DNA from: a virus
Lineage: Duplodnaviria; Heunggongvirae; Uroviricota; Caudoviricetes
Reading direction: 5' to 3' (one strand)
Length of the DNA stretch: 64,000 nucleotides
Virus record (IMG/VR): IMGVR_UViG_3300003155_000137
Coordinates: 46,629 to 110,628 of that record
Numbering within the stretch: the first letter of the stretch is position 1; every line of letters begins with the position of its first letter. A model generated the notes under the pieces. The model ran no database searches. It had not been told where the DNA came from and saw only the letters and a program-made list of their open reading frames with translations. The position numbers were made by a program, and so were the translations under genes. Of this stretch, positions 3,401 to 62,928 are shown piece by piece.

Positions 3401-5244
3401 TCGCAAGGGTCGACGGCATATCGCCGCAGGAGGCCATGGGATACGTCAGGGAGCTTGAGGCGTCCGGCTGGCCGATGAACGACTCCACCCTGTCACACAC
3501 GTTCGATGAACTGTGGCAGTGCATCGCATTGAGCGCCGACCTCATGGACCTCGGCAGGGATTTCTGGGAGCGCGTCTGGCAGTGGTGCGGTCGCTACCGT
3601 TCCGAGGGAATCCACGCATCGGGCTACGTCATCTCGAAGGCGTCCCTTATGGGTCGCGTCCCGCTTCGCATCAAGAAGGGCGAGGACCTTTACACGTCGC
3701 AGTGGGACTACGACTCGATAGTCCGTTGCGGATTCATCAAGTTCGACATCCTGAAGCTCAGCTCGCTGGATACCATCACCGACGTGTACAGGCTCACGCA
3801 CGACGGCGAGCTTGACGTGCAGGAGGCGTATCGTGAGATGCGCGACGAGAGGTTGCTTCGTGGCAAGGCCCTGTGGGGTCCGACATGGGGCGGCGACACG
3901 CTTGGCATCTTCCAGATGGACACCAAGCTCGGTACGACCACGGCCATGAACGCGCGCATCAATTCGCTCCGCGACGCCGGCATGCTGTCCGCAGCCGACC
4001 GCCCAGGACTCGTGCGTTCCGGCCTCATCGACGAGTTCTACAAGGTGAGGCTGGGTCAGGAGCCGGTGAACCACTATCACCCGCTCATCGACGACATCCT
4101 GGAGGAGACCGACGGGTTCATCCTCTATCAGGAGCAGATCATGAGCATCTATCAGCGCATGTGCGGCATGACGATGGGTGAGGCAGACAACGTCCGCAAA
4201 ATCTTCTCCAAGAAGAAGCTCGACAAGGTCGAGGAGATGAGGAACCTGCTCCGCGATTCGTGCCTGTCAAGCCGGGAGTTCGTGAGACTCACCCCGGACA
4301 AATACCGCAACGTCGAGGAGTGCTTCGACGACATCTGGAGGGGTCTTTCCAGAACCGCCGAGTACAGCTTCAACAAGTCCCACGCGACATCCTACGGACA
4401 GATCACGGCGATTGAGGAACTCTACAAGGTCAACTTCCCCGCCGAGTTCATCACGGCGTCGCTGAACACCGACCCGTCGGACACCAGATTCATCTCGTGG
4501 GCCAGGGCTCATGGAATCAGGGTGGCACCGCCGAACGTCAATCTTTCCGGTTCGCGATACGAGCTGAGGGACGGCGTCATCTACATGCCCATCCACTCCA
4601 TCAAGGGGATAGGACCCGCTGCGGTCAAGGAGATATTCGCGGGAGCGCCATACTCGTCGTTCGACGACTACCTTGAGCGCACGTCCGGTCGTGGTGGGCG
4701 GAAGAAGGATGTCATGACCTCGCTCATCTCCATCGGTGCGTTCGACGGCGTCGATCCGCGAGACCGGTTCGAGCTCATGTGCATCTGGAAGACCATGCGC
4801 AAGGAGGAACCGCCGAAGCGCAACACATGGAAGTCCGCAAGGGTCCGTGGAAGAATCGAGGAACGCCTGATCGGCGTGTCGTTGTCGTATGACCCCGTCC
4901 TCGACAACCGTGAGATGCTTGAGTCGCTCGGCCCGCAGAGCCTTCCGGATGTCATGCAGACCGGTGTCGGTGGATTCGTGAGCGTCGCCGGTGAGATCAC
5001 CGAGATTCGCAGGCACCAGGCGAAGACCGGTGAGATGGCGTGGGTGAAGATACGCTTGGTGTCCCATGACGATGTGGAGGTGACCGTTTTCCCGTCCAAG
5101 TGGAGCGATATGAAGGACCTGTTGCAGTCTCACGACCTCGTGTCGGTGAGATGCAAAAGGACGGACGACTACAACGGCAAGATGTCGCTCATAGCCATGA
5201 GCGTCAGGAACATGTCCCTTGAGGACAAGGGGGTTGTGAAATGA
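493..5244 (+). CDS. dnaE: DNA polymerase III alpha subunit (DnaE-type, PHP domain) interrupted by an intein
   Basis: An N-terminal PHP motif HCHSHYSLLDG is present. The polymerase and fingers regions follow the insertion. The 1583-aa ORF is continuous. The intein spans 1780-2988. Confidence 0.8.
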   Translation: MTNRYVPLHCHSHYSLLDGYQTVPEYARYLTENGYRAGGLTDHGVVSGLEEFDYELRRLGDVKPVLGIEAYLTDDVTNIMTNRPILDSAGRPKVDKKTGEPMFEKQRPKDFNHGCMWAENDRGLENLFTLSTLSYERGFYRKPRIDLPMMRDHHDGLFVSDGCLLSQVARAAVDAIGANDDRSRQTAIDKAYDWIESLVDIFGRDHVLIELHTWQFTNPGDDEKSLELNRQMRAANHLKLQLARDLGLMTIAVNDAHYGHREDYEWHELEWSTTTKKGEDYNDDKTDGRGETAAWVMNDDEVRYWLGRHGLPEDAIEESIENTSRIADACNAHINRSLNPPRFLDTREEDEELFDRTIADGFKELVPKKKAGEYMDRLNREVELVKKCDLTGYFNTVADYSNFVRAEDPDGETYGIEGKHASLLGPGRGCFLPGNLVSTFKRGFPHRNLWPDTGYEFDEPLKRIEDIKVGQKVLTHDCTFHEVLEKYEYDVHDEDCVELTLSNGHVIRCTADHCIFRQDDGFVRADELHEGDVLEGSYRPKETVDVVCADCGHRQKLPFIKWKSDMTTSSVVRDRGVFICAHCRNKRNSDYYKPITSKLGAIAAASPESRLKNSESVKRFWETHPDVKDAVAKKTVERYKNPVNRMLTAEATSKGLSMLGEEQYMRMSLSNGYKTGIFYSQKMGRNIFFASSYELKAIHIFETDSNVVSYDRCKSDDGDHLLYIRYGYARRYNPDFDVRYSDGTRKIIEVKADWRRNDPVTLAKADAARAYCDAIGAEYEIWGRHELEVANDWQHIPTTVTSVRHFKYTGKVYDLHVEGVHNYTVGRVTVHNSAGGSLVCYLMHITNLDPIKFGLIFERFLTAGRVISTVHVAFDDGTEKSYDPSDMVELSDGTSEESWHLLDEAGLETKDGVVDHTWFDFHDCPDIDLDFTAEVIPLLNAYLKKRYGEENFCHIGTFQELKLASAIKDIARVDGISPQEAMGYVRELEASGWPMNDSTLSHTFDELWQCIALSADLMDLGRDFWERVWQWCGRYRSEGIHASGYVISKASLMGRVPLRIKKGEDLYTSQWDYDSIVRCGFIKFDILKLSSLDTITDVYRLTHDGELDVQEAYREMRDERLLRGKALWGPTWGGDTLGIFQMDTKLGTTTAMNARINSLRDAGMLSAADRPGLVRSGLIDEFYKVRLGQEPVNHYHPLIDDILEETDGFILYQEQIMSIYQRMCGMTMGEADNVRKIFSKKKLDKVEEMRNLLRDSCLSSREFVRLTPDKYRNVEECFDDIWRGLSRTAEYSFNKSHATSYGQITAIEELYKVNFPAEFITASLNTDPSDTRFISWARAHGIRVAPPNVNLSGSRYELRDGVIYMPIHSIKGIGPAAVKEIFAGAPYSSFDDYLERTSGRGGRKKDVMTSLISIGAFDGVDPRDRFELMCIWKTMRKEEPPKRNTWKSARVRGRIEERLIGVSLSYDPVLDNREMLESLGPQSLPDVMQTGVGGFVSVAGEITEIRRHQAKTGEMAWVKIRLVSHDDVEVTVFPSKWSDMKDLLQSHDLVSVRCKRTDDYNGKMSLIAMSVRNMSLEDKGVVK
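1780..2988 (+). other. Intein (403 aa) within dnaE, carrying a zinc-finger/NUMOD-like/PD-(D/E)xK homing endonuclease domain
   Basis: The start is Hint block A CFLPGNLV (GRG|C). The end is VHN|S. Inside are CxxC...CxxC and YNPDFDV...IEVK motifs. Confidence 0.7.
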
Positions 5245-8044: not shown

Positions 8045-8117
8045 GGGGTATTGGCGCAGTTGGTAGCGCATCTGCTTTGCAAGCAGAGGGTCGCCGGTTC
8101 GAGTCCGGCATGCTCCA
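8045..8117 (+). tRNA. tRNA-Ala (anticodon UGC)
   Basis: Acceptor GGGGTAT/ATGCTCC, D-arm GCGC..GCGC, anticodon stem TCTGC/GCAGA with loop TTTGCAA, and T-arm GCCGG-TTCGAGT-CCGGC all fold. Confidence 0.8.
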
Positions 8118-8374: not shown

Positions 8375-8541
8375 CGGTGGCGCGCCAATGTCAATGTTGA
8401 CGGCGTTTCTGTCCACGGGATGGTGTTTAATCATAGTGACGGTTCCGATAACGGAACCGTAGGCACGAAAGGCGATGTCCCGCATGTATTCGGCGGGACG
8501 ATGCACGAATTGCCTATGACGAACACTGAAAGGTATATGAG

Positions 8542-25426: not shown

Positions 25427-26689
25427 ATGACACTCGATGAAGTCGGTATCGCCGAACGGAACAAACGCATAGGCGAATCCCGCAAGGTCACGAAGCTGCG
25501 GCGTAAACATCAGGTGTGCCGCGCGTTCACCTGCAAAATCGACTACTGGAAGCTCAAAGCCGAACAGCGGGAAGCCCTGTCCCAATTGTTCTTGGATGCG
25601 AAGCGCCTTTACAACGACTGCGTCACGTCCGAGGACGTGTTCTCCTACACACCTGCCCGCGTCGTGAACGTGAGGATGAAGGACGGGAGCTTCAGGCAAA
25701 GGGAACTCGCCCGTATCGGCGTCCAGACCATGCAGGGCGTCATCCAACAGGCCAAGGACAACATTCGCGGACTGTCCAAGCTCAAGGAGAAAGGGTACAA
25801 GGTCGGCGGACTCAAACCGGTCAAATGCTTCAACAGCATCCCGTTGAAGCAACCCGGACGAACCTACCGGCTGAACGGCAACTACATCCATGTCGAGCGC
25901 ATACCCGGCGTGATGCATCTGACCGGGGTGAAGCAGCTCAAGGGCTGGGAGATAGGTCCGGCGAAACTTCTCCGCAAGGCAAGCGGCTACTATGTCGCGT
26001 TCTCCTGCTTCAAGGACAAAATGGAATACGATGAGGGCAAGACCTACAATCCGCCGCCAGCAATACCCATCGGTGGGGTTGACGCCGGGCTGAAGGATGA
26101 AATCACCGAATCCGACGGAACGAAGACCACACGCCGCTATCCGGACACCACCAAACTCCGCTACTGGCAGCGGCGCATGAGCAAACGCGACAGGAACACC
26201 AACAACTGGCGGGAGGCGAACCGCCAATACCGCAAGGAACAGGACAGGCTCAAGGCGCAACGCAAGCACGCCGCCATAGAGGAGGCGCGCCGGCTGACCG
26301 GCAAATACGCGACACTCGTCATCCAAGACGAGCAAATCCACTCATGGAACAAACGCGAAGGATATGCGCGGGGCGGCAGGAAAATCCATGCCGGAATCCT
26401 CGGACGCCTATACGCGACGCTCAAACAACGACCCAATGTCATCGTCTTGGACAAGTGGCAGCCGACGACATCATGGTGCCGGTATTGCGGACGACGAACA
26501 CCATGCCCGGTAAGTCAACGCACATTCACCTGCATGTACTGCGGCGCACAGGAAGACCGCGACCAGCACGCCGCGCTCAACATGCCGGTACTCCAAGAGC
26601 AGCCACTAACCCACGTAGACCTTCGAAAACCACGGGACATCCCCATCGGGCCATACCTCGGTAACGCGCGTACCCGGAACGCCCGCTGA
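25427..26689 (+). CDS. tnpB: TnpB (OrfB; RuvC-like, RNA-guided nuclease family of IS200/IS605)
   Basis: The C-terminus has a zinc finger (CRYCGRRTPCPVSQRTFTCMYCG), a RuvC-III region and the typical K/R-rich linker. Confidence 0.75.
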   Translation: MTLDEVGIAERNKRIGESRKVTKLRRKHQVCRAFTCKIDYWKLKAEQREALSQLFLDAKRLYNDCVTSEDVFSYTPARVVNVRMKDGSFRQRELARIGVQTMQGVIQQAKDNIRGLSKLKEKGYKVGGLKPVKCFNSIPLKQPGRTYRLNGNYIHVERIPGVMHLTGVKQLKGWEIGPAKLLRKASGYYVAFSCFKDKMEYDEGKTYNPPPAIPIGGVDAGLKDEITESDGTKTTRRYPDTTKLRYWQRRMSKRDRNTNNWREANRQYRKEQDRLKAQRKHAAIEEARRLTGKYATLVIQDEQIHSWNKREGYARGGRKIHAGILGRLYATLKQRPNVIVLDKWQPTTSWCRYCGRRTPCPVSQRTFTCMYCGAQEDRDQHAALNMPVLQEQPLTHVDLRKPRDIPIGPYLGNARTRNAR

Positions 26690-32742: not shown

Positions 32743-32748
32743 TATAAT
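32743..32748 (+). promoter_or_regulatory. TATAAT -10 box upstream of the second tnpB
   Basis: GATATAATTGG, 24 nt before the ATG at 32772, with the RBS TGGAGG. Confidence 0.3.
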
Positions 32749-32771
32749 TGGTTTGTTATTGGAGGTTTGTC

Positions 32772-33992
32772 ATGGCTGAGCTGACGTTGACGATGCGCGC
32801 CCGTCTGCTGCCCACACCGGAGCAGCAGACGCGGCTCGCCGCATTGTGTTCGACGTTCGCCGACTGCTGCAACGACGTGGCCGACCACATCGACAAAACC
32901 CGGACGCTCAGCCAGAAGAAAATCAACAAGGCCATCTACCACCAGTTGCGCGAAGCGCACGGGCTGCTCGCCCAGATGACCCAATCCGCGATACGCCGGG
33001 TCATCGCCAACTACAAGGCCATCCACACGCGCATCAACAATCTCCGCGAGGAAAACAAGAACGGTGAGACGCGGGGAGGCAAGAAGCGGAAGATACCCGA
33101 GTATTACGGGATAAAGCCCCAGTACGCGCCCAACGGGTGCGACCTGCTGTGGAACCGCGACTACTCATACTCCCAACGGACCGAAATGTTCAGCCTCCCC
33201 GTCATGGACGGGCGCATCAAGGTGAAGGCCGAATGGAAAAACGTCCCCGACCAATACCGGCTGGGAAGGTTCGGCACAGCCCGTCTCATCCGCAGCCGCG
33301 ATAAATGGTATCTGCTCATCCCCGTTACCATCCAGACGCCGGACGTGACGGAACACCCCAAGACCATCGTCGGCGTGGACTTGGGCATACGATTCCTCGC
33401 CACCTCCTATGACGGCGAACACACCACATTCCACGACGGGAAGGAGGTGAAACACCGTCGCGGCAGATACAAGACTCTTCGCAAGGAATTGCAGCAGCGG
33501 GGCACGCGCAGCGCGAGGAAACGTCTCAAAGCCATCGGTAGTCGAGAAAACCGTTGGATGACCGATGTCAACCATCAGGTGTCTAAGGCACTCGTCAACC
33601 AGTACGGCAGGGACACGCTCTTCGCGCTCGAAGACCTCGAAGGAATCCGCAACGCCACCGAAAGGGTGAGGATGCGGCAGCGCTACGTGCAGGTGTCTTG
33701 GGCGTTCAGCCAGCTCCGTTCGTTCATCGGATACAAGGCGGCACGCAACGGTCAGGCCACGGTCGCGGTCGATCCCGCGTACACCAGCCAGACCTGCCCA
33801 CGATGCGGGCACGTGTCCGCAGGAAACAGGGACAAGCGGAACCACATCTTCATCTGCCGCAACTGCGGCTACCGGTCGAACGACGACCGGATAGGCGCAA
33901 TGAACCTGCGTCACAAAGGCTACGACCTGATCGTGATGCAGTACGACGCCAACATGATTGACGTCGCAGGGGTGCAGCCAACCATCCCGTGA
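32772..33992 (+). CDS. tnpB: TnpB (second copy, solo; no tnpA detected)
   Basis: The C-terminal CPRCGH...CRNCGY zinc finger and RuvC-like motifs are present. It is only distantly related to copy 1. Confidence 0.7.
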   Translation: MAELTLTMRARLLPTPEQQTRLAALCSTFADCCNDVADHIDKTRTLSQKKINKAIYHQLREAHGLLAQMTQSAIRRVIANYKAIHTRINNLREENKNGETRGGKKRKIPEYYGIKPQYAPNGCDLLWNRDYSYSQRTEMFSLPVMDGRIKVKAEWKNVPDQYRLGRFGTARLIRSRDKWYLLIPVTIQTPDVTEHPKTIVGVDLGIRFLATSYDGEHTTFHDGKEVKHRRGRYKTLRKELQQRGTRSARKRLKAIGSRENRWMTDVNHQVSKALVNQYGRDTLFALEDLEGIRNATERVRMRQRYVQVSWAFSQLRSFIGYKAARNGQATVAVDPAYTSQTCPRCGHVSAGNRDKRNHIFICRNCGYRSNDDRIGAMNLRHKGYDLIVMQYDANMIDVAGVQPTIP

Positions 33993-49654: not shown

Positions 49655-49735
49655 ACCCATTCTGCCCATAGGATTCGCGACCCCTCCCATCGGTGGTATC
49701 ATGGTATTTGAACCGACAACCGATGGGAGGGGGCA

Positions 49736-50056
49736 TTGCGATGCCTCCTCGTCAGTGAGAGTGAGGAGAATGCAATGGCTTCGGCTGATTCCTATTTTGA
49801 CATCTTGAATAACATTGTCAATTCCGCTCTGGAATCAATCGGTGATGGAGTTGACATCGAAGAGGCGATTGGCGACGCCATAGATGCCGAGTGCATATGG
49901 GATGCCGACCGGCAGACGGTGGCCGAGAACTTCGGAACCCTCGACATCGACGCCGCATTCAATGACGCATACGAGGACCTCTATAATGAGGCGTACAACA
50001 GGGTCGTCGATGAGATGCCTGAGGATGACGATGATGATGCGGAGGACGAGGAGTGA
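49736..50056 (+). CDS. Small highly acidic protein
   Basis: Ends in DDDDAEDEE. Confidence 0.3.
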   Translation: MRCLLVSESEENAMASADSYFDILNNIVNSALESIGDGVDIEEAIGDAIDAECIWDADRQTVAENFGTLDIDAAFNDAYEDLYNEAYNRVVDEMPEDDDDDAEDEE

Positions 50057-52542: not shown

Positions 52543-52552
52543 ACTAGAATTG
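52543..52552 (+). promoter_or_regulatory. Motif copy AAACTAGAATTGAATGTACGG, followed by a GGGGCGGG...CCCCGCCC hairpin
   Basis: Upstream of the endolysin gene. Confidence 0.3.
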
Positions 52553-52611
52553 AATGTACGGGGCGGGACGCTCTGGACTCCCCGCCCTTCATTCTTTCAT
52601 GAAAGGTATGG

Positions 52612-53889
52612 ATGGGAATCATGACAATGCAGGGAATTGACATATCGAGCTGGCAGGCTGGGATCAACCTGTCTGTGGTCCCCTGTGACTTCGCAATCGT
52701 GAAGGCGACGCAGGGCACCAACTACACCAATCCTGACTGCGTTCGTGCAGTGGAGCAGTGTCTCTCGCTGAACAAGCCGTTCGGCGTCTACCATTACGTG
52801 TCCGGCGGCAACGCAGTCGCTGAGGCGAACTTCTTCGTCGACTCCATACTCAACTGGGTCGGCAAGGGCATCCTCGTCGTGGACTGGGAGAGCAACCAGA
52901 ACTCCGCGTGGGGCAACACCGGCTATCTTGACACCCTGGTCAAGCAGATCATCAAGAGAACCGGCGTCAAGCCGTGGATCTATGCGTCATCTGCTGTGTT
53001 CCCTTGGATGGTCGCCAGGAACAACGACTGCGGTACATGGGTGGCCCAGTACGCCTCGATGAACGCCACCGGCTATCAGGACACCCCGTGGAACGAGGGG
53101 GCATATGCATGCACTTGCCGCCAGTATTCCTCGAACGGTCGTCTGAACGGATGGAACGGCGGTCTGGATATCAACAAGTTCTATGGCGATGTCAACGCAT
53201 GGAACGCCTATGCCGGCAATGGCGCTACAGCCGACCCGAAGCCGTCCGCCCCGTCCGATCCACTTGCGGGATACACGGACGAGCAGCTTGCGGATGCTGT
53301 GCTTCGTGGCGAATACGGCGACGATCCCCAGAGGAAGGCCGCTCTCGGCTCCCGCTACGACGCCGTTCAGGCCATCGTGAACCAGCGCCTCGGCGTGGCC
53401 CAGTCCACCAACTCCGGCGGCATCAAGTACACGGTCAAGTCCGGCGACACCCTGTCCGCCATTGCTTCTCGCTTCGGCGTCTCGGTCAACGACATCACTG
53501 GCTACTCCTCCGGCAATCCGAACCTGATCTACCAGGGCGAGGTCTTGACCATCGGTGGCGGTGCCAAGGCTCCGGCCACCACCACGAAGACCTACACCGT
53601 GCAGTCCGGCGACACCCTCTCCGGCATCGCGGCTAAGTTCGGTGTCTCGACATCTCAGATTTCTGGATATCGTTCGGGCAATCCGAACGTCATCTACCCC
53701 GGAGAGGTTCTGACCATCGGAGGCGGTTCGTCGGCACCCGCGCAGACCACTCGCACCTACACGGTGAAGGCCGGAGACAACCTCTCCACCATCGCCCAGA
53801 GGCTCGGGACCACGGTGAATGCCCTGGTGTCCAGGAACGGAATCGCCAACCCGAACCTCATCTATCCGGGTCAGGTACTCAAGTACTGA
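52612..53889 (+). CDS. Endolysin: GH25 muramidase with three C-terminal LysM repeats
   Basis: GH25 motifs QGIDISSWQ...[12 protein letters not shown]...YHYV are present, followed by three YTV(K/Q)(S/A)GD(T/N)LS.IA repeats. Confidence 0.85.
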
Positions 53890-54029: not shown

Positions 54030-54929
54030 TCACATGGCCGTGATGGGGAACTCCTCGGGGCCGAACTCGCTAAGGATGTCGTTCCAGCGGAAGTACGCCT
54101 TACCGTTGATCCTGCCGCCTCCGGGCAGGGACCAGTCGCCGTCCGAGTCCAGATAGAGGCGGGTCCCGGTGGCCGTCTGGTAATCGGTGCACATCTCAGT
54201 CGGCTGCATGAAATCGCTCGGCTTGTGCCCGTCGGGGGCATTGTTCAGGCGCAGGATGACGAACCAGTCCATGCCGCCGCCATCGGTGCCGTCGATGCTC
54301 CTGATGACCCACCTGTCCGAGATCACGCCGACACGACCCTGAATGAGATCGCCCTCCAGAACCACGAGCCGGCCGTCCTCCTCCGAGATGACGCCGGCGG
54401 AGACGGCGGGGCCGCCACTACGCTTCCACACGGCGATGTCGCCCGGCTCGGCCTCGGCGAGCGTCACCATGCGGATGGGGGCCGGACGATTGGTCTTGGC
54501 GGATGAGCCGTTGGAGGATGTGATCCTGCGGATGACGCGCCACGGGTTCTCCAGCTTATGGTTGCGGTTGGTCCTGGTTTTGCGGTTCCATGCATAGCCG
54601 ATGCCCTGGGCGTAGATGTCGCCGTCGGAGTCGATGGAGCGGATGCGGTAGAGATCGTATCCGCCATCGGAGTTGCCGACCTGGAAGTAGTCGTCAACGG
54701 TGGCCAGCATCGGGTCGATCTCCTCGTAGCCGTCCGGAACCGGGACGGTCACCACAAGGCTCTTGGCGATCTCGGAGATGGCGGAGCGGATGTCGCCCTC
54801 GCCGTCCTTGATGCGGATGAGCAAACCGTCATCAGCCGCCGCATTGATCTCGACACCGTGTCCCTTGGGCCTGATGATGGCGTCGCCATCGTCGAAGGAG
54901 ATGGTGTTGTTCTTGTCTGTCATTTTCAT
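54030..54929 (-). CDS. Hypothetical protein, the only substantial reverse-strand gene in the window
   Basis: A clean 299-aa ORF convergent with the endolysin and with a normal composition. Confidence 0.5.
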   Translation of the reverse strand: MKMTDKNNTISFDDGDAIIRPKGHGVEINAAADDGLLIRIKDGEGDIRSAISEIAKSLVVTVPVPDGYEEIDPMLATVDDYFQVGNSDGGYDLYRIRSIDSDGDIYAQGIGYAWNRKTRTNRNHKLENPWRVIRRITSSNGSSAKTNRPAPIRMVTLAEAEPGDIAVWKRSGGPAVSAGVISEEDGRLVVLEGDLIQGRVGVISDRWVIRSIDGTDGGGMDWFVILRLNNAPDGHKPSDFMQPTEMCTDYQTATGTRLYLDSDGDWSLPGGGRINGKAYFRWNDILSEFGPEEFPITAM

Positions 54930-55129
54930 TTTCCTTTTCTGCCCATGTGTCCCTGCCGGATTCGGTTGCGAACCCGACGCCTTCGATTATGCCCCGATCC
55001 GCCGCATACGCAAAATCCACGGCGAGTCGCGGGCGTTTCCAACGAAACGCCGCCGACTTTACATGTCCATACCGTTTTGGTACAATATGAACTGTAATCG
55101 GAAACGGGACAACGGACACACTCCGGTAG

Positions 55130-55137
55130 TAGAATTG
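55130..55137 (+). promoter_or_regulatory. Motif copy GTAGAATTGACTGGTGTATGGGG
   Basis: Upstream of 55236; it shares the extended GGTGTATG tail with the 42163 copy. Confidence 0.3.
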
Positions 55138-55235
55138 ACTGGTGTATGGGGCCGTGGCCCCAGGACATGGAACAACGAGATGGGACAGGGTGCCCCCCCC
55201 CATCGGACTACTCGGCTGGAAGGCTGGTTTGAATC

Positions 55236-55868
55236 ATGGGCGAGAATCTCACCAACGACGCGCTCAGGCTGCTTTGGGACGTCATCCGTGACGCCGACGT
55301 GGCTTTGGACAACGTGACGGTCGACGTGTACGACCGCGACACGGGTACGGACGGCTTCTACGGGTTCGGCGACGACATGCCGGAGGACGACGCCGTGACC
55401 CTCGACGTCCCCTACGACGAGCTCAAGGCCGTCGTCTCGCTTGACGCGGACGCCGACTACGGCCTGATGCCCGAGACCGCCACCGTCGATGTGGAGCTCC
55501 CTGCGGTCGACATCACCTACGGCGACCCAGACCGGACCCTCAAGGCAGTCGGACGCATCCTGGACCAGGACTGGATGTACGACTCCGCCAATGTCAGAAT
55601 CTACATCTACGACCAGGACTCGGGCCGCGACGCCTACTTCGACTACGGCGAGACGATCGTCGACAGCGACGTCATGGAGCTGTACGACTGGGCCGAGGAC
55701 GAGGACGGCGACGAGGACAGGTTCAAGGTGGTCACGGCCAACGGCGATGTGACCGTGGACTACGGCGATGCGGAGGATGCGCTCCAGCGCGTCGTGAACC
55801 TCGACGACTACGAGCTGCCCGGCAACATGCTGGTGTCCGTCGACCTCGGACGCATCACCGTGATGTGA
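55236..55868 (+). CDS. Hyper-acidic protein with internal repeats (VDVYDRDTGTDGFYGFGDD / IYIYDQDSGRDAYFDYGET)
   Basis: It is preceded by the TAGAATTG motif and a C9-C10 tract. Confidence 0.4.
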   Translation: MGENLTNDALRLLWDVIRDADVALDNVTVDVYDRDTGTDGFYGFGDDMPEDDAVTLDVPYDELKAVVSLDADADYGLMPETATVDVELPAVDITYGDPDRTLKAVGRILDQDWMYDSANVRIYIYDQDSGRDAYFDYGETIVDSDVMELYDWAEDEDGDEDRFKVVTANGDVTVDYGDAEDALQRVVNLDDYELPGNMLVSVDLGRITVM

Positions 55869-56074
55869 GAGACCACCCGCAAGGAAAGGAATCGATTATG
55901 AAGGCAACCAACATCGACACGGACGAGGTGGTGGACGTCGTTCCGTTCGGCCTGCTCTCGCCGGACCTGTCCAGCCTCTACATGGTGGACGCCAACACCG
56001 GCTACCCGATGGAGGAGCTGTAGTCCAAGCCACAGGCTTCGCTCCGCACTCGCGGAGGTAATCCATCCAATCGA

Positions 56075-56278
56075 ATGAAAGGAAGCGACTCCGACATGTA
56101 CGGACAGGAAGCCAAGGAGATGCTGATCGACTACATCAGGAACTCGGGGTTTGACCCTGACGACTGGGACATCGATCAGGCAACCGACATGATTATGGAC
56201 AGGTGCGGCGACATGCGTCCCGAGGATGTTCCGGAGGACATCGTGGCCGATGTGCTGATGGCGACCGACCTGTCCTGA
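56075..56278 (+). CDS. Small acidic protein
   Basis: ORF. Confidence 0.25.
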   Translation: MKGSDSDMYGQEAKEMLIDYIRNSGFDPDDWDIDQATDMIMDRCGDMRPEDVPEDIVADVLMATDLS

Positions 56279-56303
56279 GCGACGAGGGTTCGAGGAGAAG
56301 GAT

Positions 56304-56411
56304 ATGGCCGTAGGCGATCCGTGGAGCAACAGCGGAGCGAGGAGCGGTGCGATGCAGGTGTTCCACGAATCGCCTACTGCCATGTCATACGCGATTCCCA
56401 ATGTCGGTTAG
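56304..56411 (+). CDS. Small ORF (35 aa), paralogue A of a duplicated ~75-nt segment
   Basis: MAVGDPWSNSGARSGAMQVF... Confidence 0.25.
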   Translation: MAVGDPWSNSGARSGAMQVFHESPTAMSYAIPNVG

Positions 56412-56573
56412 CTGATAATTGAGCTTATCGGATTCCCACATGCTATCGCGGAGTCAATGTCCTTTTCGGTTAACATGATGTAATCCATCTTATGAGAAAA
56501 GCAGAACCATTCTGCACGCCTTGCCGCAGATGTCACACAACAGATTGTCCTCAATGTCATCAGTCATGAACGC

Positions 56574-56583
56574 CACTATAATT
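56574..56583 (+). promoter_or_regulatory. Motif copy CCACTATAATTGATGGTGCGTACATG
   Basis: A TATAAT variant, about 27-nt similar to the 42163 copy. Confidence 0.3.
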
Positions 56584-56651
56584 GATGGTGCGTACATGAT
56601 TCACTGTCTGCTCGTCGCAGATCACTCGTCCTTTAGGGGGTGATGCACAGA

Positions 56652-56774
56652 ATGGCCATAGGCGACCCTTGGAACAACAACGGAACGAAGAACGGTGCGA
56701 TGCAGGTGTTCATACCTTCGTCGGCACCCATCATCTCGTCCATATCGATAGACTCGCTCATGAGCCATTTCTAG
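56652..56774 (+). CDS. Small ORF (40 aa), paralogue B
   Basis: MAIGDPWNNNGTKNGAMQVF...; about 85% nucleotide identity to 56304-56380. Confidence 0.25.
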   Translation: MAIGDPWNNNGTKNGAMQVFIPSSAPIISSISIDSLMSHF

Positions 56775-56837
56775 CCGCCGTTCGACGACCTCGTATTCGA
56801 CAAGTCGGACTCGTCGCATATCAGGCATCTCGTCGAA

Positions 56838-58055
56838 GTGCTGTGCGGCGAGTCCGGCATCGGACAGATACTCGCATGGTCGGTCAGGGACTGGCTCAAC
56901 GGCGGCGTCTACACTGCATGGCTCGGATTCGTGGACAGGCTCTTCGCCAGCATCTACGGACTCCCGAGGATATACGAGGAGACCACGAAGTTCAACCCAT
57001 CCGACGGTGCCCTCACCATCGAGGAGGTGAACGAGGCCCTCGTCAAGGAGAGTTGGTACAAGGAGCGGTTCGTCCTGCTCATGAAGGCCCTGTGCTCCGG
57101 AGGAACGGTGAGAGGGTTCAGGTTCGCGTGCCAGTCCATCTGCTTCTGCGACTGCGACATCTACGAGACGTGGAGATACAAGAAGCAGGACTTCCAGGTC
57201 GGAAGGATGGGCTACACCCTCTACAACGAGGTCGTGATATGCCCGTACTCCAAGGGCGTGACGGAGCGGCAGAAGGAGCTTCTGCTCAGGGTGCTCGACA
57301 GGCTCAAGCCGGCCGACGTCATCGTCACCATCGACATGAACGGCCTTGAGGCGTTCACCCACAGGTCGATGAGGGCCGTCACCGCCTCGTCCACATACTT
57401 CGAGATACAGCGCACCGTCATGAACACGGTGGACAACTCCAAGCTCCCTCCGGCCTCGGAGATATTCACGGACGGTCAGGCATACGGGTATGACGCCTAC
57501 CTCCGGCTCGACACGGGCGAGACGACCGAGGTCAGGAAGGCGATCCAGAACAGGACGCAGGAGTACACCGAGTACTACGTGTCCGACAAGAGCTCCACCG
57601 CGCAGGTCGCCGACGTGACGTACACCATAGAGAACGCCAACGACGAGGTCGTTTCCGAGGAGGACTGGACTGAGCGCGAGTCCACGGTGAGATGGAGCTC
57701 GTGGGTGAGGTTCACCATCGTAGACGCCCCCGACAACTATCCCGGAGGGAAGTACGGCAGGACGCCGATGCGCGCCCCTGCGGTGAACCGCGACGGAACG
57801 GACTACATCTTCCCATACGAGTCGCAGGATGCGTATGAGAGGATGAAGGGGGCGCAGGTCATAGCGGACGGCGGAGAGGTCATGGGACACCATTACAGGG
57901 TCAGGCTGTCGGTGTCGACCACGACGACGCGGTACACCCCGGACATGTCGTTGGTCACGGTGAACGACGCATCGAACAACATGCAGGTGCTCCCGGAGGT
58001 CGAACCGAAGGAATTAAACGCATACAGCCGCGTCACGCTTCGGAACATGCAGTAG
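56838..58055 (+). CDS. Hypothetical protein, 405 aa (GTG start)
   Basis: 405-aa ORF in the late region; no motif-based assignment. Confidence 0.3.
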   Translation: MLCGESGIGQILAWSVRDWLNGGVYTAWLGFVDRLFASIYGLPRIYEETTKFNPSDGALTIEEVNEALVKESWYKERFVLLMKALCSGGTVRGFRFACQSICFCDCDIYETWRYKKQDFQVGRMGYTLYNEVVICPYSKGVTERQKELLLRVLDRLKPADVIVTIDMNGLEAFTHRSMRAVTASSTYFEIQRTVMNTVDNSKLPPASEIFTDGQAYGYDAYLRLDTGETTEVRKAIQNRTQEYTEYYVSDKSSTAQVADVTYTIENANDEVVSEEDWTERESTVRWSSWVRFTIVDAPDNYPGGKYGRTPMRAPAVNRDGTDYIFPYESQDAYERMKGAQVIADGGEVMGHHYRVRLSVSTTTTRYTPDMSLVTVNDASNNMQVLPEVEPKELNAYSRVTLRNMQ

Positions 58056-58118
58056 AATCGTTTATGTAACGAAAATCGGAAACGCCTCCATCCCCCGCTC
58101 CCCACGGGGGGGGCTGGA

Positions 58119-58427
58119 ATGGAGGTAATGGTGGCAAAATTCACCGTTGAGACACAGGATGATTTCGTTGACGGCATTCTCGACGACACCATCGTCGATG
58201 CGCTCGACATGTACCACGAGAGACTTGAGGACGGCGGCGACCCCGACGACATCATGTACGACGCCGTCGCCGACGCCATCGATGACAAGTTCATCTATTG
58301 GCAGGACATGGCTTCGGCCGTCATCGAGTACGGCAAGATCAGTGATGCGTTCCAGATGGTCTACGAGGACCTTTTCGCCGACGTCATGAACGGCCTGACC
58401 GAGCGTGCCGATGAAAACGCCGGCTAA
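58119..58427 (+). CDS. Hyper-acidic small protein
   Basis: It is preceded by a GC hairpin with a G8 tract. Confidence 0.35.
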   Translation: MEVMVAKFTVETQDDFVDGILDDTIVDALDMYHERLEDGGDPDDIMYDAVADAIDDKFIYWQDMASAVIEYGKISDAFQMVYEDLFADVMNGLTERADENAG

Positions 58428-58479
58428 TTGGGCGTTCGATGCCACCGATGACGGCGAGGACTGGTGACCACGTCGGCGT

Positions 58480-58489
58480 GCTAGAATAT
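58480..58489 (+). promoter_or_regulatory. Motif variant GTGCTAGAATATACTCC
   Basis: Upstream of 58584. Confidence 0.25.
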
Positions 58490-58583
58490 ACTCCGTAGGC
58501 AATATGCAACACACATGCCTCCGTTTTCCTCCGTGAGTGGACGACTCACGGGGGGGGGGCAGGACGGAAAGCGGAGGTATGAT

Positions 58584-59057
58584 ATGGCACGACGCATCGC
58601 CAGAGGCAACGGCGACAGGTTCGGCTTCGTCGACTGGTATTCGTCGGTCGAGGTGGCGGACGATGCGAGAGTCGAGGGCATGGAGGTCGACGGCATCCTC
58701 ATCGAGCTCGTCCGGCCCGACCCCGACATCTTCGGCGGGTTCGATCCCGAATACGAGGCCGAGGAGGGCTACGACTTCTACGAGATGGTTGTGTCAGCTC
58801 CCTACACCTACAACGGCTGGGACATCGCCCGGAAGGTCAACTCCATTGACGGGGTCATCGCGGAAAGCGAGTTCGAGTCGGTGAACTGGGCCAGCGACGA
58901 CGAGGGCGCGTACATCCACGTCGTGGTCTCCAACGGAAGCGACTTCACCGGCACAGAGGACGAAGTCGACGCCGACATGAAGGACGACGGCTTCACCGAC
59001 GACGACATCGTGTCCATCAACGGGGCTCCGTGGCCGTTCGACGGATACCGTCGTTGA
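58584..59057 (+). CDS. Hyper-acidic protein (start at MARRIARG; the upstream part of the 58515 ORF is leader)
   Basis: The RBS GGAGG and a hairpin with a G10 tract lie upstream. Confidence 0.35.
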   Translation: MARRIARGNGDRFGFVDWYSSVEVADDARVEGMEVDGILIELVRPDPDIFGGFDPEYEAEEGYDFYEMVVSAPYTYNGWDIARKVNSIDGVIAESEFESVNWASDDEGAYIHVVVSNGSDFTGTEDEVDADMKDDGFTDDDIVSINGAPWPFDGYRR

Positions 59058-59191
59058 CCACGCCGGTGCCGGTCGTGGAGCGGAAACCGTGGTAAACTGT
59101 TCCATGATGGAGAAAATCACTTGAGACATGCGGCCTCCGCCCCGGCTCTCTCCATTCGACGGGGGGAGGCATGGGCGGAGGCTAATGCATC

Positions 59192-59845
59192 ATGGCGATT
59201 GACGAATACACCGGCGACGCGCTGAAGACAATCAGCTATCTCATCGACGAGACCGACATGGAGACCGACCAGATCGTGGTGAGCTTCTACAACCACGCGA
59301 ATGACAAGTCGTTTGAAGTCGGACAAGGTGACGGGCTGGTCACGGAGAACGATGTGATGTCGCTGTCCGATGGTGAACCCTCCGAGGACGGGCTTGACTC
59401 CACGGTGAACCCGGCGCTCGTCGATGCGTTCAACGCCATCCTCTCCCTCGACTACTCATACGACTTCGAGCAGTGCGAGGACATGCTTGGCGCGTCCGAC
59501 ATCGGCGTCATGTTCCTGGTTCCGTCCGCGAACATCTCTGGACGCACGCCTGAACGGTCGCTTGACGCCGTCATGTCCGTGATAAACGATCCGAACATCG
59601 ACACCGACGAGATCGGCGTCACCCTGTATGACTGGGATGGGTACAACTACGATTTCCGGTACGGCGATCGCGTGACCGACGAGGATGTCGAGGCGATGTA
59701 CGACATGGAGTCCCCGGAGATGACCGACGGGGACTATACGGTCGATTCGCTCCGCGAGATGATTCAGGAGGTCGTGGACCTCGAAACCCCGTATGCGCCT
59801 CTCGGCTACTCCGTCACGGTTGACCTCAACGACCTCTCGTTCTGA
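59192..59845 (+). CDS. Hyper-acidic protein sharing a YDWDGYNYDFRYGD motif with 55236
   Basis: A GCCTCCGCCCC...GGGGGGAGGC hairpin lies upstream. Confidence 0.35.
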   Translation: MAIDEYTGDALKTISYLIDETDMETDQIVVSFYNHANDKSFEVGQGDGLVTENDVMSLSDGEPSEDGLDSTVNPALVDAFNAILSLDYSYDFEQCEDMLGASDIGVMFLVPSANISGRTPERSLDAVMSVINDPNIDTDEIGVTLYDWDGYNYDFRYGDRVTDEDVEAMYDMESPEMTDGDYTVDSLREMIQEVVDLETPYAPLGYSVTVDLNDLSF

Positions 59846-60035
59846 TTGACGTGCCTCAAGGCGGGGCCGGAACGCGGTTGCGCGAACCGTATCAACGCAC
59901 TCTAATGCGATTAGGCCATCCTCCGAGGAGGAAATGGAAGCGGGAGCCGGATTCCCTGTGCATCATGGGGGCCGGCTCCTGCGCTTTTATGTATCCCGTT
60001 ACCTTCTGAAGACCGGCAACGGGGGCGTCTCCGAA

Positions 60036-60045
60036 ACTAGAATTG
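60036..60045 (+). promoter_or_regulatory. Motif copy AAACTAGAATTGTATTCAGAG
   Basis: Upstream of homing endonuclease copy 4. Confidence 0.3.
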
Positions 60046-60097
60046 TATTCAGAGATGCGTCCGGCCTAAATCTTTTTGGAGGAGGTGCTAAGCCAAC

Positions 60098-61060
60098 ATG
60101 TCGTTCGAGTGCGATATCTGCCACAGGGAGTTCATGAAGCGGAATGCGCTTGGTGCCCACATAAAGTTCAAACACACCAAGAAGACGGATGCGGCGACCG
60201 TCAAGTGCCCGGAATGCGGCAGGGAGTGCAAGGGGACGCTTGGCCTCAATAGGCACATGAGGCTCAAGCATGACCCAAAGACCAACGCCACCATATCCGA
60301 AAATTCGAGACGCATGTGGGCGGACAAGGAAACCCACGACCGTATCGTCAGCGGAATCCGCAAGGCATACGAATCCGATGATGTCAGGCGAAAGGTGTCA
60401 GAGGCCACGTCCATCGCATTGTCGAATCCGGAAACCAGGGCAAAGCTCTCCGAGGCATCCAAAAGGATGTGGGAAAGACCGGAGTACCGTGAGAAGATGA
60501 GGCCATACATGAATCGCATCCAGCATGATCCCGAGATGCGCGAGCGCCACTCTGAAGCGATGAGCGCACACTGGGCCGATTCGGAATACAAAAGCCGGGT
60601 GTCCGCCCGCATATCGGAGTCGAACAGGAGAAGAATCGCCGAATCGACCGATGAGGAGTTGCAGAAATGGCTTGGCCCGCATCATGGCGTACATAGCGAC
60701 ATACTCAATAAAAGCGGGAAGAAGGTTCATTGTCAATCCTCGTTTGAGCTCAGATACTGCGAACTGCTGCTCCGCGACGAATCGGTGAAGGATTTTGACC
60801 GCTCCGGCTTGTGGCTCGACATCATCGGAACCGGAAGAAAGTACAATCCGGATTTCATGGTCGTGTTTTCGGATGGCCATCGTGAGCTGGTTGAGGTGAA
60901 AAGCTCGTTCTCGATACGAGACCCTCTTGTTCCGTTCAAGACCGAAGCGGCCATTTCATGGTGCGAAGAGAACTCAGCAGTATACAGATTGCTTAAGGAG
61001 GATCAGCTCGACATGTACGAATCACTCTTGAATGGAGACGATCATGGCATCATCGATTGA
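60098..61060 (+). CDS. Free-standing homing endonuclease (C2H2 fingers + NUMOD-like repeats + PD-(D/E)xK), copy 4
   Basis: FECDICHREF...H and CPECGREC...H fingers; repeats xxSExxKRMWxxPExRxK; nuclease motif YNPDFMV...VEVK. An ACTAGAATTG motif lies upstream. Confidence 0.6.
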   Translation: MSFECDICHREFMKRNALGAHIKFKHTKKTDAATVKCPECGRECKGTLGLNRHMRLKHDPKTNATISENSRRMWADKETHDRIVSGIRKAYESDDVRRKVSEATSIALSNPETRAKLSEASKRMWERPEYREKMRPYMNRIQHDPEMRERHSEAMSAHWADSEYKSRVSARISESNRRRIAESTDEELQKWLGPHHGVHSDILNKSGKKVHCQSSFELRYCELLLRDESVKDFDRSGLWLDIIGTGRKYNPDFMVVFSDGHRELVEVKSSFSIRDPLVPFKTEAAISWCEENSAVYRLLKEDQLDMYESLLNGDDHGIID

Positions 61061-61556
61061 TACGACACAGGCTAAAAATTTTGAGATCTGGGGGGCTGGC
61101 TTCGGCACGCTGAACTACAACGGCCAGCCGCTTGACCTCATATCGAACTTCAGCGATTCCGGACAGCCGGCGCTCGGACAGCCCATCGATGTGCAGACCA
61201 TCATGGACCAGCGGCCGAGATGTATCATACCGCCGATGGCCGTGAGCTCCGGAACCCTGACGTTCACCACATACGGCCTGAAGGAGGACGGCGTCTGGGG
61301 AACCGTCTTCAACGGAAGGTTCAAGACCGCACGGGACCTCGTGGACCTGTTCAACCAGCAGCTCGAGATGGGTGCCATCACCCTCAACTGGATCACCGTC
61401 GACCTCGACGGAACGCCGACCAAGTGCTTCCAGTATTCCGGGCTCGTCGTGACCAACGCCCAGAAGAACATCAACGTCGACAACAAGGGTGCCAGGACCG
61501 CCGAACAGACCTTCACCTGCAAGTACACCCGCGTCACCGAGCTGACCAATAGCTGA
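61032..61556 (+). CDS. Hypothetical protein, 174 aa
   Basis: 174-aa beta-rich ORF; no motif-based assignment. Confidence 0.3.
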   Translation: METIMASSIDTTQAKNFEIWGAGFGTLNYNGQPLDLISNFSDSGQPALGQPIDVQTIMDQRPRCIIPPMAVSSGTLTFTTYGLKEDGVWGTVFNGRFKTARDLVDLFNQQLEMGAITLNWITVDLDGTPTKCFQYSGLVVTNAQKNINVDNKGARTAEQTFTCKYTRVTELTNS

Positions 61557-61578
61557 CCGGCAATAGGGAGGACATGAA

Positions 61579-62928
61579 ATGCCGATAACCAACTCATATG
61601 CCTACGTGCCGCCGAGCGTCATCATCGACGCCCCCCAGGACCTCACCGGCGTCACCACCTACGTCGAACCCAGCACCGTGGCCATCGTGGCGAGGGTGGA
61701 CTCGTATCCCACGCGCACCATGTCAAGGGTGCTGGGCAACGGTGCCACGGCGGTCATCAGCGCCCCGAACGTCATCATGGAGTCCATCAAGCTGAAGGAC
61801 TACTCCGGAAAGGACCTGAAGAAGGACACGGACTACACCCAGACCCAGGACGAGGAGGCCCAGACCTTCTCCATCAAGGTCATCAACCCCGAGATCAAGA
61901 CCCAGTCCATCCTCATCAGCTACGAGTATCTGCCGGACGACTTCTTCGAGCCGCTGAAGTTCTTCACCATCAACTCGGTTGCGGAATACTATGGCGCTGC
62001 GTACAACGACGACTACACCATCAACTCCCCGATAACGGCCGCCGCGAGGTTCGTCTTCGCCAACGGAGGCGTCTCGGTGTGCGTGGTCCCGGTGTACGAC
62101 AAGGAAGAGGACGACTCGGAGAACCCGAAGCAGACCATCGAACAGGCCCTCGACAAGCTGAGGCTCCATCAGGACATCGCCATCCTCGTCCCCGTCGCGT
62201 TCACGTCGGAGGAGCTCATGGACGCCCGCGAGCACATCATCTGGTGCTGCGGCCACCAGCTCGAACGCAGGGGCATCTTCGCCCTCGACGGCACCACCAC
62301 CACCTACACCATAGACGACCTGTGCGCGGTGGCGGGCTCGATGGACTCCGAGCAGATCATGTTCATCCCCAACAACATCGCGTCCATCTACGTCAGCGAG
62401 ACGAGGCGCTCCCAGAACCTCCCCGGATGGCTCTATGCAGCGGCCGCGGCGGGAGTGGCCATAGCGGCCCCGTATTACCGCTCCCTCACCAGGCTGACGC
62501 TCTCCGGATTCTACGGCGTCCAGGCGTTCCTGTATGAGGAGAAGAACAGGCTGGCGACGGCCGGATGCTCGGTCATCGAGATGCAGAACGGCGTCATCCG
62601 CTTCAGGCACTCTGTGGTCACGAGACAGAGCATGATGCTCGACTGGAGCTATGCGGGAATCTACAACTACATCTGCGGCGCGCTCCGCACACTGCTCGAC
62701 GTGTACATCGGACAGCCCAGCTCGGACACCCTGCTCACCGAGATATACGGCACGGTCAACCTCTTCCTGACCCAGCAGGTGGAGTCCGGCGGCATCTACG
62801 CATTCGACTCGCTTGAGGTGTCGCGCAGGGCCAACAACCCCGAGGTCATCGACGTGAGCTTCCGTGTCGCGTTCCTGCGTCCGGCCCTGTGGATCGTCGT
62901 GACGTTCGACGTCGACCTGACCTACTGA
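61579..62928 (+). CDS. Hypothetical structural protein (weak resemblance to a contractile-sheath or major structural protein)
   Basis: 449-aa ORF with an HQLERRGIFALDG segment. The assignment is uncertain. Confidence 0.25.
   Translation: MPITNSYAYVPPSVIIDAPQDLTGVTTYVEPSTVAIVARVDSYPTRTMSRVLGNGATAVISAPNVIMESIKLKDYSGKDLKKDTDYTQTQDEEAQTFSIKVINPEIKTQSILISYEYLPDDFFEPLKFFTINSVAEYYGAAYNDDYTINSPITAAARFVFANGGVSVCVVPVYDKEEDDSENPKQTIEQALDKLRLHQDIAILVPVAFTSEELMDAREHIIWCCGHQLERRGIFALDGTTTTYTIDDLCAVAGSMDSEQIMFIPNNIASIYVSETRRSQNLPGWLYAAAAAGVAIAAPYYRSLTRLTLSGFYGVQAFLYEEKNRLATAGCSVIEMQNGVIRFRHSVVTRQSMMLDWSYAGIYNYICGALRTLLDVYIGQPSSDTLLTEIYGTVNLFLTQQVESGGIYAFDSLEVSRRANNPEVIDVSFRVAFLRPALWIVVTFDVDLTY

Follow-up and report, generated by a model that had tools for sequence, protein, structure and literature searches.

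The PeSLs (promoter early stem-loops) of T4-like myoviruses (Arbiol et al. 2010, PMC2839356; Comeau et al. 2014, PMC4122927), which carry a Shine–Dalgarno (SD) sequence and a start codon at their 3' end, stand in front of ORFans in hyperplastic regions and bring about modular shuffling. They are the closest described system to a set of leaders that we analyzed in a 64,000-nt stretch of DNA from a tailed phage (IMG/VR record IMGVR_UViG_3300003155_000137, positions 46,629 to 110,628; hereafter, the window), where four homopolymer tracts of G or C precede genes for small, very acidic proteins. We refer to these leaders as E1 to E4. The cassettes resemble PeSLs in genomic role, and the explanation that we favor, with moderate confidence, is a PeSL-like promoter–leader cassette that hides the ribosome-binding site (RBS) of small acidic accessory genes, in which a slippage-prone G run serves both as a strand of the helix and as the joint of exchange.

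As in PeSLs, the unit here is a repeated intergenic cassette composed of a promoter (here a promoter-like box), a stable stem-loop often containing polyG or polyC, an SD and a start codon; it is placed before small genes without annotated function (ORFan type) in a hyperplastic region, and close relatives have their indel and replacement junctions at the cassette. The phage differs from T4-like myoviruses in belonging to another lineage (its tail sheath shares only 24–29% identity with the sheaths of Rhodococcus, Mycobacterium and Gordonia myoviruses), and only a −10-type box is recognizable in its cassettes. The stem-loop here also lies inside the 5' leader, past the promoter, and the SD itself forms its 3' arm, opposite a CCUCC that mimics the anti-SD. 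Its order is a C-rich stretch followed by a G run, whereas PeSLs have polyG followed by polyC, and it has neither a U tract nor a terminator signature. The formation of mini-circles is a further trait of PeSLs.

Leader hairpins that sequester the SD are known from translational operators, RNA thermometers and anti-SD/anti-anti-SD switches. Comparable homopolymers have been described as polyG tracts of Campylobacter phages (Sorensen et al. 2021, as cited in PMC12823448), contingency loci of phages T2 and T4 (PMC12633550) and G tracts of Bifidobacterium breve pilus genes (PMC9187656). Cluster K mycobacteriophages carry start-associated sequences (SAS) and their extended form (ESAS), which are suspected, but not proven, to act in translation initiation (Pope et al. 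2011, PMC3203893), and in Roseiflexus IS630 hairpin-stimulated transcriptional slippage at a coding U5C5 motif restores the reading frame (reviewed in PMC5009743).

In E2, E3 and E4, the tract lies inside a hairpin of 43–66 nt with the plan CCUCC...G-run...GGAGG. At its base, an upstream CCUCC, identical in sequence to the 16S anti-SD, pairs with the gene's own GGAGG SD; in the upper helix, the partner of the G run is a C/U-rich 5' strand (CCCCCGCUCCCC in E2 and CUCUCUCC in E4), and the start codon follows 2–10 nt past the hairpin. E3 has in addition an inner hairpin immediately 5' of its G10, which the first Gs of the run close while the remaining Gs bulge. The hairpins of the four leaders, and two tract-less ones found elsewhere in the window, are the following:

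58084 to 58126, plus strand: leader hairpin E2, with anti-SD CCUCC (58085–58089), a C-rich strand, G8 (58106–58113) and SD GGAGG (58121–58125)
58515 to 58580, plus strand: leader hairpin E3, with anti-SD CCUCC (58518–58522; second CCUCC at 58528–58532), G10 (58550–58559) and SD GGAGG (58573–58577)
59132 to 59183, plus strand: leader hairpin E4, with anti-SD CCUCC (59134–59138), CUCUCUCC paired with GGGGGGAG (G6, 59161–59166) and SD GGAGG (59177–59181)
55148 to 55161, plus strand: 5'-proximal GC hairpin of E1, GGGGCC-GU-GGCCCC
55180 to 55203, plus strand: hairpin of E1, AUGGGACAGGG-UG-CCCCCCCCC-AU, containing C9 (55193–55201)
49681 to 49732, plus strand: tract-less hairpin, CCCCUCCCAUCGGUGG...CAACCGAUGGGAGGGG
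49744 to 49768, plus strand: tract-less hairpin, CCUCCUC...GAGGAG

The tract-less pair follows the same CCUCC:GGAGG logic and precedes a small acidic open reading frame (ORF; ATG 49775 to 50056), with a TAGGAT box at 49669–49674. The initial annotation of this DNA had put each tract in a stem-loop just upstream of the RBS. The tracts are indeed in hairpins, but in E2–E4 the stem contains the RBS, while the E1 hairpin ends 32 nt 5' of the ATG and includes no RBS. Mechanical ORF calling starts two genes inside the hairpins (at 58119 and 58515); by homology, these genes start at 58128 or 58131 and at 58584. All 26 representative leaders fold into an anti-SD:SD base helix with a tract-bearing upper helix. 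Leaders with a run of G5–13 paired to C/U-rich strands have hairpin energies of −22 to −40 kcal/mol, with helices of 17–24 bp interrupted by internal loops, the E2 type being short (17 bp).

These leaders share with SD-sequestering hairpins the pairing of the SD to an upstream CCUCC-type sequence beside the start codon. They are far stabler than RNA thermometers and differ from SD-sequestering hairpins generally in having a homopolymer in the helix and several diverged copies per genome, all of them linked both to a promoter box and to the shuffling of cassettes. They also match no Rfam family: in the whole window, Rfam 15 covariance models at the gathering threshold returned only three tRNAs, and at E ≤ 5 the region 54900–59300 gave a single chance microRNA match on the minus strand. 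SAS and ESAS are similar in that they, too, recur at the RBS, with an inverted repeat upstream, before many non-structural genes of an actinobacteriophage. The 13-bp SAS consensus at the RBS (GGGATAGGAGCCC) is absent here, with three matches at two mismatches against 1.7 expected; SAS and ESAS contain no homopolymer, and the ESAS inverted repeats lack RNA-type covariation according to their authors (PMC3203893), whereas the base helix of the present leaders covaries.

Covariation was assessed on the arms of 19 distinct leaders, with the invariant CCUCC and GGAGG as alignment anchors. Directly above this core, the pair is GC in 6 leaders, AU in 4, CG in 3 and UA in 2, and the next one is UA in 4, UG in 4, CG in 3 and GC in 2. 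The resulting covariation score is 0.225 compared with 0.095 in shuffles, none of which (0/500) reached the observed value. Pairing occurs at 80.5% in the true register and at 44–58% in registers slid by 1–3 columns, and the unpaired cells cluster in recombinant (chimeric) leaders. The inner hairpin before the E3 tract varies by lineage (GUGAGU/ACUCAC, GUGG/CCAC or CCGG/CCGG) and is always a hairpin. Folding of dinucleotide-shuffled sequences (200 shuffles) showed E3 and E4 to be more stable than expected (z −5.5 and −5.0, both 0/200), while E1 folds no better than its shuffles (z +1.1). In 21 of 22 leaders the sense fold is stabler than the antisense fold, by a mean of 4.85 kcal/mol, because each leader contains 1–5 G–U pairs; this advantage of the sense strand therefore favors a structure at the RNA level over a DNA cruciform.

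We ranked the predicted cost of opening the SD over 89 plus-strand candidates in the window that combine an SD and a start codon. Against a median of 2.7 kcal/mol, the tract-less hairpins before the ORF at 49775 rank first (16.6 kcal/mol), followed by E4 (16.0), E2 (9.8) and E3 (8.4) at ranks 2 to 4. With a tract-less copy at rank 1 and E2–E4 next, SD occlusion is the common denominator of these leaders, and the helix is often, but not necessarily, built with a long G run.

RNase III-type processing of leaders is known from the T7 early region and the lambda N leader. Such cleavage could provide the opening step for these very stable, SD-occluding hairpins, exposing the SD and leaving a stabilizing hairpin on the upstream RNA, and the dimensions of the helices (17–24 bp with internal loops, about two helical turns, one before each gene of the run) would suit it. 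The shortness of the E2-type helices speaks against hairpins that are primarily processing sites, and we consider that reading improbable.

Transcription attenuators or terminators that insulate the cassettes from read-through are another conceivable role for GC-rich intergenic hairpins between successive small genes, and PeSL stem-loops with polyG/polyC cut lacZ expression like a strong terminator (PMC2839356). Yet a plus-strand terminator scan found none at the four tract sites, no U tract follows the hairpins (the post-stem sequences are GUAAUGG, UAUGAUAUGG and CUAAUGCAUC), and hairpins lying 3' of their own −10 box would halt their own transcript. The 3' arm is moreover the SD, with the start codon 2–10 nt farther on, which points to translation; insulation of this kind is distinctly unlikely.

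The initial annotation had offered three readings of the tracts: phase-variable switches, G-quadruplexes or leader structures controlling translation. The last is the best supported, given the SD paired with CCUCC, the covariation, the strand-specific fold and the place of E2–E4 among the four most occluded SDs of the 89 candidates. G-quadruplexes, or an operator for a G-run-binding protein such as a phage C2H2 zinc-finger protein, would fit long G runs that are always on the sense strand in phages that encode several C2H2 zinc-finger proteins. No leader, however, contains four runs of at least G3 with loops of 1–7 nt (canonical motifs occur in the window only at 19887 and 47556), the tract always has a conserved, complementary pyrimidine-rich strand with which it forms a very stable hairpin, and the zinc-finger proteins bear TnsA-like endonuclease domains, typical of homing endonucleases. 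The G-quadruplex idea is thus not upheld, and we find either version hardly credible.

A run-length census of the window (58.9% G+C) places the four tracts at 55193–55201 (C9), 58106–58113 (G8), 58550–58559 (G10) and 59161–59166 (G6), all intergenic and all within 4 kb. C9, G8 and G10 exceed every other homopolymer in the window, which has no run of exactly 7. The tracts themselves had been recognized before, at positions off by 1–9 nt (C9 at about 55185 and G6 at about 59152), and had been called rare by chance at this G+C content. Base composition alone does not bear this out: 4.6 G/C runs of at least 8 are expected under an order-0 model, and 3 are observed. The window strongly avoids runs, however, with 8 runs of at least 6 against 60 expected, and under an order-3 model 0.73 runs of at least 8 and 0.13 of at least 9 are expected against 3 and 2 observed.

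Using the 157-aa protein encoded behind E3 as a query, we obtained 16 homologues (97–42% identity), whose contigs yielded 23 related loci (L001–L023) from ENA and Logan assemblies. All 23 carry the same kind of leader before homologous genes, with the architecture kept down to 42–47% identity of the adjacent protein (L009 and L010) and the tract of this leader class always G on the sense strand. Because the same tracts recur in the same leaders of 23 related loci from several studies, they are neither chance nor assembly artifacts. Scans of IMG/VR with protein and DNA patterns and of JGI metagenomes revealed no relatives, so that the clade was found only in ENA and Logan assemblies. A degenerate leader pattern (GCCTCC..G9C..GGAGG) had seven matches in IMG/VR, which we rejected as chance matches on contigs of 56–73% G+C without promoter box or start codon.

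The more distant locus L009 has extra copies: G10 at 5003, G12 at 8090 and a C9AC5...G9 hairpin at 8468–8498. This last hairpin lies directly 3' of the stop codon of a 112-aa gene; behind it comes another GC hairpin, which ends in a T-rich tail and looks like a bidirectional terminator. Several contigs end exactly in a tract of G9–G12 (L023 1–12, L012 1–9 and L015 1740–1751), which suggests that assemblers break at G runs.

A length that allows slippage (~7 or more) is reached by C9, G8 and G10, with G6 borderline, and tract lengths vary among the loci:

E2: G8 in the window; G9 or G10 in relatives
E3: G8, G9, G10 or G11
other leaders: up to G12–13
E1: C9 in the window, C10 in L004 and CCA-C7 in L010
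E4: mostly G5–6 plus AGG; G9 without interruption in L009 alone

Five groups of near-identical contigs differ by 1–2 nt, within a range of 8–13, in keeping with the proneness to slipped-strand mispairing that had been ascribed to these tracts: L001 and L002 have G9 and L003 has G8; L006 has G8, and L007 and L008 have G9; L010 has G9, and L011 and L012 have G11; L013 has G9 and L014 has G10; and L019 and L020 differ by 1 nt at three leaders. Within the pairs L004/L005 and L017/L018, each probably one sample that went through two assembly pipelines, the lengths agree. Penno et al. (PMC9187656) warn that Illumina data misreport G tracts, and they describe G10–12 tracts as mixed populations within clonal Bifidobacterium cultures. 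To judge from the contigs compared, the length polymorphism is likely real and fits slipped-strand instability. In the E3 leader of a 150-aa homologue (L023 5650–5735), CCTCAG replaces CCTCC and the tract is only G5, a single case that hints that the anti-SD arm and the long tract go together.

Tract length affects the modeled fold. In a thermodynamic model, the cost of opening the SD drops by 4–9 kcal/mol from G8 to G11–12 in five of six leaders, and the effect is specific to G, extension by A being nearly without effect. Such behavior speaks for a heritable rheostat or switch set by tract length: as an SD mimic, the G run would compete in cis for the anti-SD arm, a longer tract would free the SD by capturing CCUCC, either at equilibrium or ahead of the SD during transcription, and slipped-strand changes would generate phage subpopulations with different translation levels. 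In some leaders the tract captures the anti-SD at G11–13, and in the E3 leader of L001 the anti-SD changes partner at G11–12 (0.43 and 0.86). When the nascent RNA of the window's E3 was folded before the SD is made, the anti-SD was paired to the tract with a probability of 0.80 at G10 and 0.00 at G8–9, and the leader D_L017 flips between G10 and G11. The natural range of 8–13 and the heterogeneous G10–12 tracts of clonal Bifidobacterium (PMC9187656) point the same way. Against this, the equilibrium model gives an anti-SD:SD pair probability of ~1.0 at the tract lengths of the window, with capture confined to G11–13; E2 and E4 show no capture at native length in the nascent fold, E4 stays closed at every modeled length, and nearest-neighbor models are unreliable for long G runs. 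We regard control by tract length as rather unlikely, while a graded or kinetic effect of length is plausible in these models. What survives of the phase-variable switch is the difference of 1–2 nt among near-identical contigs; the tract itself is in a 5' leader whose SD stays paired in the equilibrium models at the window's tract lengths.

In a related proposal, which we hold just as tentatively, the G run would be a hypermutable decoy that catches the CCUCC arm during transcription, ahead of SD synthesis, so that its length sets the time for which the ribosome site is open, and it would also be a universal recombination joint for promoter and gene halves. Its length could change through replication slippage and possibly also through hairpin-stimulated slippage of RNA polymerase. 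E3-type leaders resemble Roseiflexus IS630 in having a nascent hairpin directly 5' of the homopolymer, a geometry that stimulates polymerase realignment; unlike the coding motif of IS630, the run here is a non-coding G8–11, and E2- and E4-type leaders have no separate adjacent hairpin. If the proposal is true, several accessory genes would have a heritable, reversible spectrum of translation levels within one phage population, and a virus would have a contingency mechanism that is non-coding and acts at the level of translation.

The tracts share with contingency loci a length of ~8–13 nt that differs between near-identical genomes, and the probable host phylum has clonally heterogeneous G10–12 tracts in Bifidobacterium. 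Classical on/off loci of the kind found in Campylobacter phage polyG tracts, T2/T4 and Bifidobacterium pilus genes would, in addition, be consistent with two G10 tracts in coding sequence of relatives, one at L011 8890–8899, 18 nt into a 96-aa ORF downstream of tail genes, and one at L009 34–43, in a glycine-rich stretch of an ORF where L023 has GGAGGCAACGGGGGCGG; these two could be classical frameshift contingency loci. The known loci are coding and act by frameshift, whereas the four tracts of the window belong to a strand of a non-coding RNA helix and would at most grade expression. They lie 50–70 nt past the −10 box and 20–35 nt before the start codon, and because they are outside ORFs and not between −35 and −10, the classical routes of frameshifting and promoter spacing are excluded. 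One upstream ORF was considered and rejected as a general mechanism: an ATG at 58515 is in frame through the G10 of E3 into the 157-aa gene, but has no SD and is missing in L009, L010 and all E2 leaders. On/off switching of the classical kind is accordingly very improbable.

Comparison of the related loci shows that cassettes are exchanged at the tract. The 5' leader half behind the gene for a DUF7297 protein meets four different 3' halves, with their genes, at the G run, and the same 3' leader halves occur with two different 5' halves. In three cases, pairwise alignments show an entire unit inserted or deleted, from the 3' leader half and its gene through the following promoter box to the following 5' half, with junction windows of at most 35 nt that each contain the tract:

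L017 2151 to 2621: cassette indel, missing in L001
L010 7076 to 7450: cassette indel, missing in L011
window 58128 to 58550: cassette indel, missing in L013 and also in L022

Between the DUF7297 gene and the 157-aa gene, the 99-aa, 98-aa and 135-aa genes occur in several arrangements, two of them in both orders, while the flanking DUF7297 and sheath genes are 97–99% identical among close relatives. The G run is the longest perfect identity between neighboring leaders, and chimeric leaders still fold, at about −25 kcal/mol. A homopolymeric G arm would pair with any pyrimidine-rich partner and so keep recombinant leaders foldable.

A promoter-like box belongs to each cassette. Boxes of the TANNNT type lie 26–36 nt 5' of the E2, E3 and E4 hairpins, without a clear −35 element:

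55130 to 55135, plus strand: −10-like TAGAAT before E1, with a second box (TACAAT) at 55081–55086
58053 to 58058, plus strand: −10-like TAGAAT of cassette E2, overlapping the TAG stop of the DUF7297 gene; TAAGAT or TAGAAT in relatives
58482 to 58487, plus strand: −10-like TAGAAT of cassette E3, invariant in the E3 leaders of L001–L009 and L015–L021 while its flanks vary
59093 to 59098, plus strand: −10-like TAAACT of cassette E4; TAAACT or TAGACT in relatives
38103, 42165, 51172, 52545, 55130, 58053, 58482 and 60038, plus strand: starts of the TAGAAT sites in the window

Each of the eight sites on the plus strand lies at most 110 nt upstream of a long plus-strand ORF, those of baseplate and endolysin genes included; only two sites occur on the minus strand, and a GTA usually follows 5–8 nt 3' of the box. 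TAGAAT is probably a phage −10 consensus common to structural, lysis and accessory genes, and if it is read as a −10 element, the consensus would put the start site near the GTA. Neither these boxes nor the role of the cassette as a break point appeared in the initial annotation. Right behind the TAGAAT box of the endolysin gene, the leader at 52551–52600 forms a GGGGCGGG...CCCGCCCC hairpin, with no recognizable SD before the ATG at 52612.

In the PeSL-like cassette that we favor, a TANNNT box (usually with a GTA ~7 nt on) is followed by an A-rich leader of ~20–30 nt, a long imperfect hairpin and the start codon. By hiding the SD, the hairpin would keep translation of the small acidic genes low or conditional; it might be opened by RNase III-type cleavage, by a protein or through a time window during transcription whose length the tract determines. 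The G run would be mainly structural, since G pairs with C and U in any register, so that slippage and non-cognate 5' halves are tolerated. Replication slippage would alter its length and at most grade hairpin stability and SD exposure, with no on/off switching. The identity shared by the leaders (CCTCC, C-rich stretch, G run and GGAGG) would serve as the recombination substrate on which cassettes are deleted, inserted and reordered in the fashion of PeSLs.

Several observations weigh against this explanation. Opening costs of 8–18 kcal/mol would nearly abolish translation, which makes an extra opening step necessary. The C9 element of E1 falls outside the SD-occlusion scheme, E4-type leaders manage without a long tract (G5–6), and E2 alone folds no better than its shuffles (z −1.4). 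The covariation was drawn from paralogous as well as orthologous leaders with anchors of our own choosing, and the core CCUCC:GGAGG is invariant and so uninformative by itself. The promoters are consensus matches only, and the length differences of 1–2 nt come from low-coverage Illumina assemblies (some 3–7×) and may in part be consensus errors.

The window comes from a large tailed phage and has genes for a DNA polymerase, a UvsX-like recombinase, a DnaB-like helicase, baseplate proteins, a GH25/LysM endolysin and the tail sheath, together with two TnpB-like genes and three tRNAs. A DNA search of INPHARED (50,697 phage records) with window positions 54500–62000 gave no match. The endolysin is nearest to proteins of Arthrobacter and Bifidobacterium phages (~40% identity) and has relatives with 46–66% identity in genomes of Collinsella, Bifidobacterium, Alloscardovia and Actinomyces. 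By these sequence affinities, the source is an uncultured large myovirus whose host is probably a gut actinobacterium; the endolysin relatives suggest the phylum of the host but not the host itself.

The tract-associated genes encode small, very acidic proteins (pI ~4.05, 23–27% D+E):

55236 to 55868, plus strand: acidic 210-aa gene (pI 4.05, 26% D+E) behind E1
58128 (ATG) or, by homology with L004 and L010, 58131 (GTG) to 58427, plus strand: acidic 99-aa gene behind E2
58584 to 59057, plus strand: acidic 157-aa gene (pI 4.05) behind E3
59192 to 59845, plus strand: acidic 217-aa gene behind E4

The acidic proteins matched no Pfam family and gave no informative PHROG match, and an AlphaFold (AF2) model of the 157-aa protein (pLDDT 82) had no fold match in the PDB at E ≤ 0.001.

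The DUF7297/phrog_2813 virion-protein gene upstream of E2 (56652–58055) contains an in-frame TAG at 56772–56774, inside a 12-nt insertion (..SLMSHF*PPFDDLVFDK..). The TAG is kept in L003, L004 and L010, while in L009 and L023 the insertion is missing and the encoded protein, of 448–455 aa, is unbroken. The TAG could serve as a readthrough site, mark a split gene or be a defect that is tolerated. The 5' end of the same gene is duplicated, with a diverged copy (MAVGDPWSNSGARSGAMQVFH) at 56304 (region 56304–56650), and the copies border an AT-richer insert. In L004 (2248–3535) this insert holds an intact minus-strand gene for a 339-aa zinc-finger/TnsA-like endonuclease, of which the window retains a remnant (50-aa ORF, 56408 to 56560, minus strand), so that the arrangement looks like the insertion of a homing endonuclease followed by decay. 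Selfish elements are abundant in this genome: the DNA polymerase ORF (493–5244, 1583 aa) has an endonuclease-like segment (residues ~605–790) that splits two polymerase parts, two TnpB/IS605 OrfB-like genes lie at 25427–26689 and 32748–33992, and a C2H2 zinc-finger/TnsA-like endonuclease gene lies at 60098–61060.

For annotators, these loci mean that ORF callers start such genes inside hairpins (58119 and 58515 in the window) and that assembled tract lengths of such phages are not to be trusted to the nucleotide. If the favored explanation holds, the PeSL idea, in which regulation and shuffling of accessory genes are combined, would reach beyond Gram-negative T4-like phages into uncultured large myoviruses, and the cassette would gain a different, translation-level logic through its cis anti-SD arm. 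A slippage-prone homopolymer within a regulatory RNA helix instead of a reading frame offers a concrete, testable case and, if its length matters, phage bet hedging akin to phase variation would extend past frameshifts.

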